IMG/VR virus record: IMGVR_UViG_2913167280_000007 | Location: 1 to 5,947 of that record | DNA length: 5,947 bases | DNA from: a virus | Lineage: Duplodnaviria > Heunggongvirae > Uroviricota > Caudoviricetes | Strand: one strand, 5' to 3' | Part shown: positions 2,074 through 5,947 of the stretch, piece after piece | How positions within the stretch are numbered: position 1 is the stretch's first letter | How the letters are laid out: every line of letters begins with the position of its first letter | Position numbers and translations under genes: made by a program | The notes under the pieces: generated by a model | The model's database searches: none | Seen by the model: the letters and a program-made list of their open reading frames with translations, nothing else | Told to the model about the DNA's origin: nothing

Positions 2074-2103
2074 AAAAAATGGCCCGTTAAGGGCCATTTT
2101 TTT
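2074..2103. terminator. Bidirectional rho-independent terminator between the convergent tailspike and acyltransferase genes
   Basis: A-run 2074-2079, GC stem GGCCC (2081-2085), loop GTTAA, stem GGGCC (2091-2095), T-run 2097-2103. Read on either strand this gives a hairpin followed by a U-tract. It lies between two convergent stop codons. Confidence 0.75.
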
Positions 2104-3247
2104 AGATAGTTGTTGTATTCTTTTTTAGCAATGTTGCGCTTAGGTTTTTCCCAGTTTTTATGAATGGGGTTTCAACCATTTTGTATGTAATTATTGATGC
2201 TATTACAGTAACAAATAATATCATCGGGAATAAAGCATAGAATTCTGTTCTGGTAACGCCATAAAAATCATAAATATTAAAAACAGTAAATGCTGAGTAC
2301 AGTATAAATCCATGAGTAAGGTATATGCTGTAGCTTATGTCTCCTAAATAAACTAGGCCATTTTTGCGAAGAGCGCCAAAGATATCATTTCCAGATGAAA
2401 TTAAAATGAAAAGCATTCCAACAAGCAGCATTTGATATAAAGAGTAGCTAGGAGTCTGTGTAAATGCTATGGCGCATATAATAATTGCAAAAATAGAACA
2501 TGTATTACTTTTTAAGAAATTGATTTTTAGCTTAGTCACGTAATATGCAATCCCACCTATCGCAAATAAAATGAATAGCTCGTAGCGCACAGACGTTGCA
2601 TAAAGACATAAAATCAAAACAACAGCGGACAGTGCGCCGTATATTTTTGAGGAACCACCTTTTTTAATGATAAGGCTTAGTAGTGGGAGTGATATGTAAA
2701 ACAGAGCCTCATAGAATAAAGTCCACTGCACGCCGCTGATGCTTCTGCCAATGTTGTACCCATTAAGAGGCTGAAGGAAGAAAGCCATTCCGGCAGCTAA
2801 AGATTTAACAAGAGAAGATAGCGAGGTCTCCCCATCATATGTAACAAAGTAAACGCTGTATATTATTGCCAGCATGAGGATGTATAATGGATATATTCTG
2901 AATATCCTGCCAGCCGCTAACTCAGGCCACGATCTTACACCTTTAGATATTTTGCCTACAAAAAGGTACCCGGTAATCATGAAAAAAAGTGAAACAGGAA
3001 TTGATCCAAGATTTCCAACAAATAGACTATTTACTGCCCATGTTCCTTCAGCCTTCCAGTTGTACGTCAAGACGAAGTGATGAAGAAGCACCATTGGTGC
3101 CAATAGCCCTCTGAAACCATCAATAGTTATGTTTCTGTTATTGCTGGTATTTATTTCAGCAGAGTTAAAAACAAAGCTTGCAACGACAATGCAGATCGTA
3201 AAAATTGTGATTAATACCAAATTATCGAAGTACATCATTCTCGCCAT
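2102..3247 (-). CDS. Acyltransferase family 3 integral membrane protein, probable O-antigen / polysaccharide O-acetyltransferase (serotype-conversion moron)
   Basis: The 381-aa product is hydrophobic with multiple predicted TM segments. It carries the family signatures R-x-x-x-x-D-G-x-R-G...H-H ('RNITIDGFRGLLAPMVLLHH') and F-F-x-I-[ST]-G-[YF]-L ('FFMITGYLF'), as in OafA/Oac-type acyltransferases. GC is roughly 30%, far below the neighbouring lysis genes. It is on the opposite strand between the tailspike and the lysis cassette. The start codon is uncertain (ATG at 3245-3247 or the ATG ATG at 3233-3238) and no clear SD is present. Confidence 0.8.
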   Translation of the reverse strand: MARMMYFDNLVLITIFTICIVVASFVFNSAEINTSNNRNITIDGFRGLLAPMVLLHHFVLTYNWKAEGTWAVNSLFVGNLGSIPVSLFFMITGYLFVGKISKGVRSWPELAAGRIFRIYPLYILMLAIIYSVYFVTYDGETSLSSLVKSLAAGMAFFLQPLNGYNIGRSISGVQWTLFYEALFYISLPLLSLIIKKGGSSKIYGALSAVVLILCLYATSVRYELFILFAIGGIAYYVTKLKINFLKSNTCSIFAIIICAIAFTQTPSYSLYQMLLVGMLFILISSGNDIFGALRKNGLVYLGDISYSIYLTHGFILYSAFTVFNIYDFYGVTRTEFYALFPMILFVTVIASIITYKMVETPFIKTGKNLSATLLKKNTTTI

Positions 3248-3392
3248 TGTAAAAAGTAAATAAACATTTTATCACCCTTTAGGTAATTTCGATAGGAACA
3301 ATCCGAACGAAATCTATCCGTATAAGGATTATCATGTATCATAAACTCACAAACTAAGGGGGGTTCATTATGCATACTTTACGGTGGTCACT
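3248..3392. promoter_or_regulatory. Divergent intergenic region, expected to hold the acyltransferase promoter (leftward) and the lysis-cassette promoter / RBS (rightward)
   Basis: A 145-bp AT-rich non-coding gap between divergently oriented genes. It contains a strong SD-like AAGGGGGG (3354-3361) and -10-like hexamers (TATAAG 3321-3326; TGTATCAT 3335-3342), but no convincing -35/-10 pair at canonical spacing. The call rests on position only. Confidence 0.3.
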
Positions 3393-3797
3393 ATGTCTGC
3401 ATCCATGACGGTTTCAGACATCAATCATGGGCTTAGCTTGTGTGCTCTTGGTGCCTGGTTGGTTGGCGTTCCGTCTGAGGTGGTGATCGGTGGTCTGGCG
3501 GGTGCGGTAATTTTTGTTACCTTTGCGGCAGAGTATCCGATAAAGCGGCGCTTGCTCCTGGCTGTCATCAGCTTCTTCTGCGGCCTCCTCTTCTACAAAC
3601 CAACGGCAACCATTCTCATTGGCTTCGCAGCCATCCTCCCCGGCGTAACATCTGACATGTTCGAAAAAGGTGTTGTGTTCTCTGCCGGTGCTTTCGTCTC
3701 TTCAATCGTGGCTGTCAGGTTTGGCGTCTGGTTGTATCACCGTTCTGAAAATCCGCGCGACCTTATCCCGGGGAGAAAAGACGATGACCAGTCCTGA
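3393..3797 (+). CDS. Small multi-pass membrane protein, putative holin / holin-associated protein (first gene of the lysis cassette)
   Basis: ORF in frame with GTG 3384, ATG 3393 and ATG 3405. ATG 3393 has a GGTGG SD-like element 5 nt upstream. Product is about 134 aa with 3-4 hydrophobic helices and a charged C-terminal tail (RSENPRDLIPGRKDDDQS). Its stop TGA (3795-3797) overlaps the start of the next gene. Position immediately upstream of the endolysin supports a lysis role. Start codon is uncertain. Confidence 0.5.
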   Translation: MSASMTVSDINHGLSLCALGAWLVGVPSEVVIGGLAGAVIFVTFAAEYPIKRRLLLAVISFFCGLLFYKPTATILIGFAAILPGVTSDMFEKGVVFSAGAFVSSIVAVRFGVWLYHRSENPRDLIPGRKDDDQS

Positions 3798-4071
3798 ACT
3801 CATTCTTAACGCTGTTATCTGCGGCGCTATAGCCATTCGCGTTCTTCTGTTTCGTCGTGACGGGTCACGCCATCGCCGCTGGGGTGGATGGCTCGCATAC
3901 CTGCTAATTGTCTCCGCCGCCAGCGTCCCTATCCGCACATTCTATGGCTATTACATCAGCGCAGATTGGTCAGAGGTAATCATTAAAGCGGTGTTCCTTG
4001 CTGCGCTTATTAAAACCAAGGGGAATGTGGTTCAGATATTCAAATTAACGAGGTCTCAACATGGACATTAA
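3784..4071 (+). CDS. Small membrane protein, putative holin (95 aa)
   Basis: ATG 3784 is preceded by SD GGGAGA (3771-3776). Product MTSPELILNAVICGAIAIRVLLF...: two or three TM helices, a positively charged loop (RRDGSRHRRWGG) and a basic C-terminus. The 5' end overlaps the previous gene by 14 nt and the 3' end overlaps the endolysin start (ATGGACATTAA). The listed ORF start at 3670 is an upstream in-frame extension with no RBS. Confidence 0.55.
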   Translation: MTSPELILNAVICGAIAIRVLLFRRDGSRHRRWGGWLAYLLIVSAASVPIRTFYGYYISADWSEVIIKAVFLAALIKTKGNVVQIFKLTRSQHGH

Positions 4072-4687
4072 CCAGTTCCAGCGCGCTGCTGGTATCAGTA
4101 CTGAGCTGGCGACGCGCTGGCATCCACACATTACCGCCGCCATGCAGGAGTTTGGCATTACTAATCCTGACGATCAGGCGATGTTTATCGCGCAGACCGG
4201 GCATGAGAGTACAGGCTTTACGCGCCTGGTGGAGAGCTTCAACTACAGCGTTGCTGGTCTTGCTGACTTCATTCGCACCGGGCGCATTACTCAACAGCAG
4301 GCGAATGCGCTTGGCCGCCGCCAGGGTGAGCCGTCGCTTCCTCTGGAGTGCCAGCGTGCGATCGCCAATCTGGTGTACAGCAAGCGCATGGGAAACAAGG
4401 GCCCGACTGATGGATGGTTCTACCGTGGGCGTGGGCTTATTCAGATCACTGGCCTGAACAATTATCGCGCCTGCGGGAACGCTATCAAAGCCGATCTGGT
4501 GTCTCAGCCTGAACTGCTGGCACAGGATGCGTATGCCGCCCGCAGCGCTGCCTGGTTCTACTCTGTGAATGGCTGCCTGAAATATACCGGTGACCTGGTG
4601 CGAGTCACGCAGATTATCAACGGTGGCCAGAACGGAATTGATGACCGCCGGGCGCGCTATGCTGCTGCGAAAAAGGCGCTGGTATGA
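4061..4687 (+). CDS. Endolysin, glycoside hydrolase family 19 (chitinase-like lysozyme)
   Basis: 208 aa. SD ACGAGG (4048-4053) lies 7 nt before ATG 4061. Motifs 'DQAMFIAQTGHESTGF', 'GRGLIQITGLNNY' and 'VTQIINGGQNGIDDR' match the GH19 catalytic core as I recall it from epsilon15-like Salmonella phage endolysins. No N-terminal TM or signal-anchor, so it is a canonical holin-dependent soluble endolysin. The stop overlaps the Rz start (ATGA at 4684-4687). Confidence 0.9.
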   Translation: MDINQFQRAAGISTELATRWHPHITAAMQEFGITNPDDQAMFIAQTGHESTGFTRLVESFNYSVAGLADFIRTGRITQQQANALGRRQGEPSLPLECQRAIANLVYSKRMGNKGPTDGWFYRGRGLIQITGLNNYRACGNAIKADLVSQPELLAQDAYAARSAAWFYSVNGCLKYTGDLVRVTQIINGGQNGIDDRRARYAAAKKALV

Positions 4688-5184
4688 TTTTGGCATTCAT
4701 AAAAGCGTACTGGAGGCAGCTGATCATTGTTGTGTTGCTCTCTGCGCTGGTAGTCGGTGGCATCGTTGCATGGAAGGTTCACGGCAGCCAACAGTATGAT
4801 GCCGGATATGCACAGGCAAAGGCAGACCGTAAAGCCGAAGATGATAAAACTCGCCAGAAGGATGAGCAGGAGAAAGCGACCAATGAACGTGAAGCTCAGC
4901 AAAGGATCGACCAGGCGCGCAATGATGCTCTTGATGCTGCCGCTCGCGCTGGCAGGTTGCAGCAGCAGCTCATTGCCATCGACAAGCAGCTCAGGCAGTA
5001 TAACGCCACTGTCGGCGCTGGGCCGTCAGCCGCAGACACCGGAATTTTGCTTGCCGACGTGCTCCGCCAATCTCTCGAAAGAAACCGAGTCCTGGCAGAA
5101 TACGCTGACCGGGCAGCCGAAGCCGGGCGGGTCTGCGAACGTCAGTACGACACCCTGACGAAACAGGTCACAGTTTCCCGGTGA
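4684..5184 (+). CDS. Rz: Rz-like i-spanin (inner-membrane spanin subunit)
   Basis: 166 aa. N-terminal TM helix (LIIVVLLSALVVGGIVAW), then a charged periplasmic domain predicted to be coiled coil (rich in A/E/K/R/Q) with a single Cys near the C-terminus. Translationally coupled to the endolysin, and it contains the embedded +1-frame Rz1 gene. Confidence 0.85.
   Translation: MILAFIKAYWRQLIIVVLLSALVVGGIVAWKVHGSQQYDAGYAQAKADRKAEDDKTRQKDEQEKATNEREAQQRIDQARNDALDAAARAGRLQQQLIAIDKQLRQYNATVGAGPSAADTGILLADVLRQSLERNRVLAEYADRAAEAGRVCERQYDTLTKQVTVSR
4922..5158 (+). CDS. Rz1: Rz1-like o-spanin (outer-membrane lipoprotein), embedded in the +1 frame of Rz
   Basis: ATG ATG at 4922-4927 begins MMLLMLPLALAG|C: a short signal peptide with lipobox L-A-G-C. 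The mature part is Ser/Pro/Thr-rich with further Cys (EFCLPTC), as is typical of Rz1. It lies entirely inside Rz. The listed ORF 4757..5158 is the same frame with a non-coding upstream extension. Confidence 0.8.
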   Translation: MMLLMLPLALAGCSSSSLPSTSSSGSITPLSALGRQPQTPEFCLPTCSANLSKETESWQNTLTGQPKPGGSANVSTTP

Positions 5185-5300
5185 CGGTATATAAAACGGT
5201 ACGCCAAAAAACGGATTTAATAAAGTTGTTACCATTCAATTGGTTATGCTTACCGTAAATAATTGAGTGGAATGATTTAATTCCTGCACTATGAATGAAC

Positions 5301-5330
5301 AAAACCCTCTGTTGCTACAGAGGGTTTTTT
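5301..5330 (+). terminator. Rho-independent terminator ending the lysis operon
   Basis: AAAA (5301-5304), stem CCCTCTG (5305-5311), loop TTGCTA, stem CAGAGGG (5318-5324), T-run 5325-5330. It lies about 120 nt downstream of the Rz stop. Confidence 0.7.
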
Positions 5331-5407
5331 ATATTGCTGACTAAAGTTAGCAATATAAAAAAGCCTGTAATCCTCACGAATCATAGGCTTGAAGTTACTG
5401 ACAGCGA

Positions 5408-5947
5408 TTAATTAAACCAACTGTCCGATTTATTCTCTTCTGCTTTACCCACGCTTTTCATCAAATCGCGACCACCTTCTGTCACATTCCTGTTAGCGTC
5501 AGCTTCAGATTGCACGACATCAGTTTGCGCGGCTTTGTGCTTCAGCTCCTGATCGATAAATTCGTTCTCGCGCTTAACGCGGGCTTCTTCTTTCGCCAGC
5601 GCCAGTTTTTGTTTCTGAATCTCTAAGCTGCGCAGCTCATCTTCATAACTTTGATCGCGTTTTTTATCCGCAGTGGCTTCGGCGTCCAGTTTATCCTGGC
5701 GAGCTTTCTTATCCGCTGCTGCTGCCGCCGCTCTTTTATTGGCGGCGGCCTGAGCGTTTGCGCGACGCTGTTTCTCTTGTTGAATTTCCCTGTTGCGCTC
5801 CGCGACCCATTCGTCATGCTGCCTTTGCTCTTCATTTTTACCTTGCTGTTCCGCTTCTGCGACAGCCGAGAGTTGATCCTGCAATGATGAGGCGGCAGCC
5901 GGATAGCTTAAGGAGGCTAAGATGGCGCAAAGAAAAACTTTCTTCAT
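5408..5947 (-). CDS. Secreted (Sec signal peptide) highly charged coiled-coil protein of unknown function; candidate moron at the lambda bor position
   Basis: 179 aa. N-terminal MKKVFLCAILASLSYPAAASS looks like a signal peptide with an A-x-A type cleavage site. The remainder is E/K/R/Q/A-rich, predicted helical or coiled coil, and includes a poly-Ala tract (RAAAAAADKK). The start ATG is at the very window edge (5945-5947). It converges on the lysis operon. No family was recognised. Confidence 0.6.
   Translation of the reverse strand: MKKVFLCAILASLSYPAAASSLQDQLSAVAEAEQQGKNEEQRQHDEWVAERNREIQQEKQRRANAQAAANKRAAAAAADKKARQDKLDAEATADKKRDQSYEDELRSLEIQKQKLALAKEEARVKRENEFIDQELKHKAAQTDVVQSEADANRNVTEGGRDLMKSVGKAEENKSDSWFN

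Follow-up and report, generated by a model that had tools for sequence, protein, structure and literature searches.

The closest described relatives of the locus analyzed here are the lysis cassettes of the Uetakevirus phages epsilon15 (gp23/gp24), phiV10 (gp27/gp28), SPN1S, and BUCT554, whose protein families and cassette order are those of the window, by which we mean the whole 5,947-nucleotide stretch of DNA that was analyzed. Each carries two adjacent genes for small membrane proteins of different families, which we call A (upstream) and B (downstream), ahead of a gene for a GH19 endolysin. In the epsilon15, phiV10, and SPN1S records, A is annotated as a "membrane protein" and B as a "holin", and Center for Phage Technology records label both as "holin/antiholin". 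Our literature search, which covered the holins of SPN1S and epsilon15 as well as the Pfam/InterPro identifiers, returned no experimental work on the epsilon15-like pair.

Both families also occur in the same order, directly 5' of the endolysin gene, in the P2-like Burkholderia phages KS5, KS14, and KL3 and in Ralstonia phage RSA1 (ORF12/ORF13). These phages differ from the window prophage in having a P2-like virion, an endolysin with a peptidoglycan-binding domain, and an A protein that lacks helix 4 of the window protein. The Burkholderia A protein was named "putative antiholin" from its position and its number of transmembrane (TM) segments, and the DUF754 protein beside it was named the "holin" (Lynch et al. 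2010, PMC3091744). A further relative is AlpB/AlpC of Pseudomonas aeruginosa (PA0908/PA0909), encoded by the alpRABCDE locus for self-lysis upon DNA damage, in which the two families, their adjacency, and their order are again those of the window. The alp locus is chromosomal and domesticated, is controlled by AlpR and AlpA, and continues into tail-related genes (AlpD being a tail terminator); the locus as we recovered it has no endolysin or spanin genes, and in the literature the alp pathway uses the pyocin endolysin Lys. Here the published labels are putative holin for AlpB and anti-holin for AlpC (Pena et al. 2021, PMC7969949). Database labels for the roles of the two proteins thus contradict one another, although the two-gene holin module is very common, and the question of roles is general to the family rather than special to the window.

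Among better-known lysis systems, P2 Y/LysA provides a functional analogy only, as a class I holin with a separate multi-TM protein that affects lysis timing. P2 Y belongs to Phage_holin_3_2, the endolysin gene stands between the two P2 genes, and LysA is dispensable; we rejected homology to LysA and Y on hhalign probabilities of 0.6% and 0.2%. Lambda S105/S107 shares with B a 3-TM, N-out/C-in layout, a basic C-terminal tail, and the task of releasing a soluble endolysin, but its dual start is without counterpart in A or B and its Pfam family is different. The phage Mu gp19/gp20 pair, proposed as holin and antiholin and shown to be dispensable, falls outside these families and is irrelevant here. 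That normal hole formation or timing can depend jointly on two distinct small membrane proteins has precedents in phages of Gram-positive hosts, in SPP1 gp24.1/gp26, PBSX XhlA/XhlB, and mycobacteriophage Ms6 Gp4/Gp5, all of which are unrelated in sequence to A and B.

The lysis cassette of an integrated epsilon15-like prophage

The window is the end of an integrated epsilon15-like (Uetakevirus) prophage. Its order of genes is that of the Uetakevirus lysis cassette, with a tailspike gene, a slot for conversion genes, and then A, B, the GH19 endolysin, and Rz with an embedded Rz1, and the gene calls of the public contig whose first 5,947 bases make up the window (GCA_004212315.1, RHJM01000019.1) agree with those made here. 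The features are as follows.

97-2073: beta-helix tailspike, truncated at the contig start
2102-3247, minus strand: O-antigen acyltransferase, a lysogenic-conversion gene of low GC
3326-3392, plus strand: conserved, promoter-like leader 5' of gene A, from sequence comparison; function putative
3370-3408, plus strand: mini-ORF of 12 codons, MHTLRWSLCLHP, from sequence; translation putative
3393-3797 (ATG 3393 to TGA 3797), plus strand: gene A, 134-aa inner-membrane protein, Phage_holin_8 (PF16931; Pfam 6e-11, phrog_198 6e-33)
3784-4071 (ATG 3784 to TAA 4071), plus strand: gene B, 95-aa inner-membrane protein, Phage_holin_3_7 (PF05449, formerly DUF754; Pfam 1e-27, phrog_217 1e-33)
4061-4687 (ATG 4061), plus strand: soluble GH19 (chitinase-like) endolysin, 208 aa (Pfam Glyco_hydro_19; phrog_181 "endolysin" 1e-86)
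4684-5184, plus strand: Rz-type inner-membrane spanin subunit (DUF2514), 166 aa (Pfam 2e-42; phrog_312 "Rz-like spanin" 2e-54)
4883-5158, plus strand: Rz1-type outer-membrane lipoprotein spanin subunit, 91 aa, from translation and start context
5301-5328, plus strand: intrinsic terminator-like hairpin (12-bp stem and T run) closing the lysis operon
5408-5947, minus strand: host gene yfgI (DUF5384)

The junction between prophage and host lies between Rz and yfgI. The same junction, with yfgI, is found in E. coli genomes, some of which carry a related prophage at this site, and the neighbors on the source contig are host genes. Since host DNA follows Rz at the position where epsilon15 and phiV10 have their integrase, we conclude that this is the end of an integrated prophage, and in this the window element, integrated beside yfgI, differs from those relatives. 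The Uetakevirus cassettes share with the window the 14-nt overlap of A and B, the conserved leader, and the mini-ORF, at about 75% nucleotide identity. The upstream conversion genes vary: BUCT554 has gtrABC, epsilon15 encodes an O-antigen polymerase and an inhibitor, and phiV10, like the window, has an acyltransferase. The cassette is a routine one of an already annotated kind, with proteins that share 67-94% identity with phage proteins already in the databases; the window genes should be annotated as an epsilon15-like prophage lysis cassette.

The initial annotation had described two tandem, overlapping membrane-protein genes ahead of the endolysin, and its coordinates, sizes, and overlaps (14 nt between A and B, 3784-3797, and 11 nt between B and the endolysin, 4061-4071) were all correct. 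Both are real genes rather than chance ORFs, as judged from scores above the Pfam gathering cutoffs, PHROG matches, hundreds of homologs, and the public record. Its suggestion that the two are paired membrane proteins governing lysis timing is supported, while its term "atypical" has to be given up: A and B each fall into holin families already established in Pfam and PHROG, and their arrangement is the standard, widespread cassette of epsilon15, phiV10, and SPN1S.

Downstream of the pair, the endolysin begins with the hydrophilic stretch MDINQFQRAAGISTELATRWHPH and carries no N-terminal signal, TM, or signal-arrest-release (SAR) segment; its epsilon15 homolog is annotated in the record as similar to the SPN1S endolysin 4OK7. 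The absence of an export signal means that a holin forming large holes is needed, rather than one forming pinholes, and a pinholin/SAR-endolysin system was rejected on the lack of a TM segment at the endolysin N-terminus. The endolysin and Rz genes overlap by 4 nt (ATGA). The Rz1 gene is embedded in Rz in the +1 frame and encodes the lipobox LALAG|C; its length of 276 nt and its embedded position are as in the Rz1 genes of epsilon15 and phiV10.

B has the Shine-Dalgarno sequence GGGGAG, which is part of the 3' end of A. The overlaps had been taken as evidence of a tightly coupled stoichiometry. This is true of B, the endolysin, and Rz; A, in front of which the mini-ORF is located, may be an exception. 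The leader upstream of A contains a -10-like TATCAT at 3337-3342 (TATGAT in relatives), followed by ACTCAC..AACTAAGGGGGG. About 60 nt 5' of A are conserved beyond the level of coding DNA among the window, epsilon15, phiV10, and BUCT554, and the same conservation is seen across 84 epsilon15-like loci. An "RNaseIII" site is annotated at the leader in the epsilon15 record, and a scan for consensus sigma-70 promoters gave no plus-strand promoter upstream of A.

The mini-ORF has a strong Shine-Dalgarno sequence, AAGGGGGG, at 3356-3363. Its reading frame differs from that of A; it spans both the weak Shine-Dalgarno sequence of A (GGTGG) and its ATG at 3393, and ends in a TGA (3406-3408) that overlaps an ATG at 3405 as ATGA. 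A Shine-Dalgarno sequence and ATG placed 22-23 nt before the ATG of A are present in 83 of the 84 epsilon15-like loci (23 nt here, from 3370), the spacing being kept even where the sequence varies. The arrangement is absent from 16 other lineages, in which A has a strong ribosome-binding site of its own. From its placement, the mini-ORF, if translated, may set the amount of A relative to B.

Families and predicted topology of A and B

Protein A matches Phage_holin_8 (PF16931) over residues 1-121 with 43 bits (gathering cutoff 26.4) and phrog_198 "holin" at 5.8e-33. Its homologs number in the hundreds and are widely named "putative holin", and it is 67-73% identical to its counterparts in epsilon15, phiV10, and BUCT554. 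Hydropathy and AlphaFold together support a multi-helix membrane protein, the AlphaFold model (pLDDT 73) having helices at 7-23, 28-44, 50-66, 68-79, and 94-118. Helix 4 is absent from the proteins of the D3-like phage, KS14, and AlpB, and is thus not a separate membrane crossing. Across the family, the loop between helices 2 and 3 averages 2.2 Lys and Arg residues, and the tail 3.8 Lys and Arg against 1.8 Asp and Glu; by the positive-inside rule, this loop and the tail would both be cytoplasmic. The C-terminus of A had been noted as acidic, which is accurate for the last residues of the window protein (...GRKDDDQS) but not for the family, whose tail is net basic.

Conserved family motifs of A are IG-x-[FL]AGA, S60, G64, and G99-A100. 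The best conserved of these, IG-x-[FL]AGA, sits in helix 2 and is of the helix-packing type, with small residues. A 10-sequence alignment across lineages shows no variation at G33, G37, A38, S60, G64, or A100 and almost none at G99, and the same residues are visible in an 18-sequence alignment that includes AlpB. Among these 18 family members, helix 1 has no basic and about 0.11 acidic residues per protein and consists to 63% of Gly, Ala, Ser, and Thr. We attribute the published disagreement between three and four TM segments in A to this weakly hydrophobic first helix. In its composition, helix 1 resembles SAR domains, a resemblance that we treat as a lead.

Protein B matches Phage_holin_3_7 with 96.3 bits (cutoff 25.4), its residues 8-87 aligning with all 80 positions of the profile, and phrog_217 "holin" at 1.1e-33. 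Its hydropathy cores lie at 9-18, 40-47, and 68-76, and a low-confidence AlphaFold model (pLDDT 55) has helices at 4-26, 33-53, and 63-77 plus a basic C-terminal helix. The protein has a net charge of +8, and its loop (RRDGSRHRR) and tail are both basic, bearing out the earlier description of these regions. In 16 members of the family, the first loop averages 3.75 and the tail 3.44 Lys and Arg residues, the N-terminus is acidic or neutral, and the second loop is acidic. Conserved motifs are RxGxxHR, in the loop placed in the cytoplasm, and RGN, which closes TM3. These features predict three TM segments with the N-terminus out and the C-terminus in, as in class I holins, and by family and topology B is a candidate holin. 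The two checks proposed with the initial annotation that can be carried out on sequence assigned A to PF16931 and B to PF05449 and predicted a multi-helix A and a three-TM B (hydropathy and AlphaFold, with low confidence for the B model).

Several searches gave null results. A Foldseek comparison of the A model with the PDB found no match below E = 1, and A, B, and the endolysin matched no NCBIfam model. Against the PADLOC defense-system models, neither A nor B had a match at E <= 0.01. That A and B might be paralogs was considered and rejected (hhalign probability of 1%). A dual start of the lambda type is absent from both genes: B has a single start, and in A no Lys or Arg lies between M1 and M5, the latter being Leu in epsilon15, phiV10, and BUCT554. 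Any regulator must consequently be a separate protein.

Spread of the A-B pair

A tblastn search of 50,697 phage records found B in 235 records, with hosts that include Ralstonia, Klebsiella, Pseudomonas, Escherichia, Salmonella, and Burkholderia, and A in only 56. We attribute the smaller number for A to its faster divergence, although it could also hide cassettes that have B only. A profile search with a mixed A alignment recovered epsilon15-like proteins only. With A as the query, phmmer across the whole sequence library gave no more than 36 clusters at 50% identity, many consisting of fragments; the full-length ones that were looked up are "putative holins" of Morganella and Yersinia. The B protein of the D3-like phage, used as a query, had 3 matches.

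From outside the epsilon15 group, 16 phages were fetched: Pylas (N4-like, Schitoviridae), a D3-like Pseudomonas phage, mEp390 and ENT39118 (lambdoid, Hendrixvirinae), RSA1, KS14, and M16-3 (P2-like, Peduoviridae), Seifer and MA12 (Casjensviridae), Brookers (P22-like, Lederbergvirus), and phiP27, EPP-1, YpM_44, yong2, Smarc1, and 118970_sal3. All 16 have an A-type gene of 106-144 aa directly 5' of a B-type gene, and Pfam confirmed PF16931 for six of six upstream proteins tested and PF05449 for six of six downstream proteins. Profiles built from these phage sequences were then run on all fetched loci. A followed by an adjacent B was found in every one of 100 loci reached through B, and B lay directly 3' of A in 174 of 176 loci reached through three A proteins, the other two contigs ending too early. 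This amounts to 274 of 274 loci with room for both genes, which speaks strongly, if not exhaustively, for obligate linkage; the set is redundant and was reached by similarity, so that solo A or solo B genes may occur elsewhere. The junctions are tight, with an overlap of 1-14 nt or a gap of 3 nt, in all loci with an annotated B (every locus but L098), annotated starts being taken into account.

The endolysins beside the pair vary and include GH19, muramidase, peptidoglycan-binding-domain, and M15 peptidase types, and the spanins vary too. The occurrence of the same pair beside differing endolysins and spanins indicates that lysis cassettes exchange the two genes as a single unit. The pair is present in virulent N4-like phages as well. 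In comparison with BUCT554, A is 73% and B 94% identical, and this gap suggests that recombination can exchange the partners, lending less support to tight, co-evolved contacts between them.

Roles of the two partners

We consider it very probable that A and B together are the holin module of the window prophage. Within this, our preferred reading, to which we assign a probability of roughly 0.7, is that the pair works as a unit in which A is an indispensable hole-forming subunit and B its obligate partner. The initial annotation had stated that which partner makes the hole is not evident from the sequence, and we agree. What bears on the question is the genetics of the alp locus, the link to which was made at the sequence level. 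The alpB forward primer of Hynen et al. 2021 (Table S2), used to recover the locus, matches four metagenome contigs and has no match in the genome collection, where an 18-mer of the reverse primer gave chance matches only. In each contig the gene right after the primer, corresponding to AlpB, belongs to PF16931 (153 bits) and the next, corresponding to AlpC, to PF05449 (104 bits). A LexA-like repressor and a small HTH protein are encoded 5' of alpB, as expected for AlpR and AlpA. The primer match and gene order indicate that the four contigs probably derive from P. aeruginosa. AlpB and AlpC share little sequence identity with the window proteins, which agrees with the 20-37% found between other lineages.

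Within the A family, genetic evidence of a holin function exists for AlpB alone (Hynen et al. 2021, PMC8131026). As reported there, an in-frame deletion of alpB combined with a deletion of hol abolishes explosive lysis dependent on Lys, and either holin alone suffices for lysis. For the single mutants, the authors describe restoration of microcolony formation by each holin gene in trans, with alpB alone doing so for the alpB mutant. The same redundancy of holins appears in a later study (PMC12360855). These results show that an A-type protein is needed for endolysin release, unlike an antiholin, and exclude an unrelated function. Their transfer to the window prophage is by analogy, and on this basis A is predicted to have holin activity.

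Most database labels imply a different division of roles, in which B acts as the sole holin and A as an antiholin that inhibits lysis until the proper time. Annotations favor B as the holin, Lynch et al. (2010, PMC3091744) gave A the antiholin label, and the layout predicted for B is the canonical one of class I holins, with three TM segments in an N-out/C-in orientation and basic residues in a loop and the tail. A also resembles the P2 antiholin LysA in having 3-4 TM segments, and in epsilon15-like phages the mini-ORF may lower translation of A relative to that of B. Against this division, A has no detectable homology to P2 LysA, and separate antiholins are usually dispensable and patchy in occurrence, whereas A is present in every locus examined. 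Loss of an antiholin should, moreover, advance lysis, whereas the joint loss of alpB and hol abolishes it and the single alpB mutant is complemented by alpB in trans (PMC8131026), AlpB being an A-family protein. We therefore regard a purely inhibitory A as unlikely. The earlier remark that B looks more holin-like stands as far as predicted topology goes, but it does not make B "the" holin, since the AlpB genetics render A more than an accessory.

The possibility had also been raised that A has an unrelated membrane function, such as superinfection exclusion, and is merely co-transcribed with the lysis genes. Accessory genes do occur in this region, the O-antigen acyltransferase conversion gene being directly 5' on the other strand. 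A nevertheless matches a holin family and no PADLOC defense model, was accompanied by B in all loci examined, and stands beside B and the endolysin in virulent N4-like phages as elsewhere; its relative AlpB is required for lysis. An unrelated function for A is on these grounds extremely improbable.

There remains the nature of the obligate partner in our preferred reading. B could be purely the antiholin of a hole-forming A, as in the AlpB/AlpC labels of Pena et al. 2021. The AlpB genetics fit A as the holin, and the absence of a dual-start motif means that a regulator has to be a separate gene. B is, however, the better conserved partner and has a holin-like topology, and it is kept with A even in the domesticated alp operon that lacks endolysin and spanin genes. 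A purely inhibitory B is accordingly a possible but less favored form of the preferred reading, and its share is contained in the 0.7 rather than added to it. Because B is never lost, has a holin-like topology, and is retained in the domesticated alp operon, we lean slightly toward B as a co-holin that would act in a heteromer with A. It is the co-occurrence of the two genes that suggests B is required, and a heteromer of the two is likewise proposed. Our search of the literature found no experiments on AlpC or another B-type protein.

Under the preferred reading of A and B as a unit, lysis would proceed as follows. Both proteins would be made from one late transcript by coupled translation, which we propose because the ribosome-binding site of B lies inside the end of A, and would insert into the inner membrane and accumulate there. 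At a set time, A and B together would permeabilize the membrane, and the holes would be large enough to pass the signal-less GH19 endolysin to the cell wall, after which the Rz/Rz1 spanin would break the outer membrane. The epsilon15-like pair, with its E. coli and Salmonella hosts and a well-characterized endolysin, would be convenient for settling which partner forms the hole.

A more speculative extension, which we think improbable, is that the pair constitutes a two-subunit holin with a built-in trigger. The composition of helix 1 in A matches that of SAR domains, for example TMD1 of the phage 21 pinholin, and for this reason A could switch its topology from four membrane spans to three, with B holding or releasing it. 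If true, lysis timing by a single heteromeric mechanism would be common to epsilon15-like, N4-like, P2-like, lambdoid, and P22-like phages and to the Alp cell-death pathway of P. aeruginosa, and the conserved mini-ORF would set the ratio of A to B in epsilon15-like phages.

Possible exchange of holin partners and the leader ahead of gene A

Comparison of the candidate holin pair in the window (3393-4071) with that of the related phage BUCT554 (L003 4144-4828) showed 94% protein identity for B, the Phage_holin_3_7 gene, against only 73% for A, the Phage_holin_8 gene. This difference suggests a recombination breakpoint within or between the two genes, and thereby that A and B are swappable partners inside the epsilon15-like group. 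Gene A is itself preceded by a leader:

3326-3408: conserved leader and mini-ORF, with a strong Shine-Dalgarno sequence

The mini-ORF (3370-3408; 12 codons) lies out of frame with gene A, spanning its weak Shine-Dalgarno sequence and start codon, and its stop overlaps the Met5 codon of A as ATGA. This arrangement precedes A in 83 of 84 epsilon15-like loci and was not found in lineages outside that group. The leader and mini-ORF may control translation of A or, alternatively, may correspond to what the epsilon15 annotation marks as an RNase III site.

A probable serotype-conversion slot and the host junction

Further features were identified on either side of the lysis genes:

2102-3247, minus strand: Acyl_transf_3 O-antigen acetyltransferase gene of low GC content (35-39%)
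5185-5947: prophage/host junction, after Rz
5301-5328: terminator-like hairpin, between Rz and host yfgI

The acetyltransferase gene is flanked by the tailspike and the lysis cassette, and the equivalent position holds the oac immunity gene in phiV10, O-antigen polymerase and inhibitor genes in epsilon15, and gtrABC in BUCT554; the region thus looks like an exchangeable serotype-conversion slot. A second genome, GCA_004745395.1 (L324 2276-5628), encodes an A protein identical to that of the window. Its prophage has only a truncated upstream acyltransferase gene (163 aa), with an IS-type transposase fragment close by, so the slot is decaying in that prophage.

Past the hairpin, yfgI (DUF5384) is 90-95% identical to E. 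coli, which makes the host Escherichia-like, though probably not a typical E. coli. The yfgI junction also carries a related prophage in some E. coli genomes.

B-type genes in other loci

In the public records of phages MA12, ENT39118 and 118970_sal3, the B-type gene lacks any annotation, being encoded in an unannotated gap between the 'holin' and the endolysin. In the alp locus of P. aeruginosa (L144 3892-4900 region), AlpD has a match to a phage tail-terminator family and AlpE a weak one to a Dit-like tail protein, so that the operon looks like a remnant in which a holin pair is joined to tail genes. AlpD is the F-pyocin cap according to a 2026 preprint.
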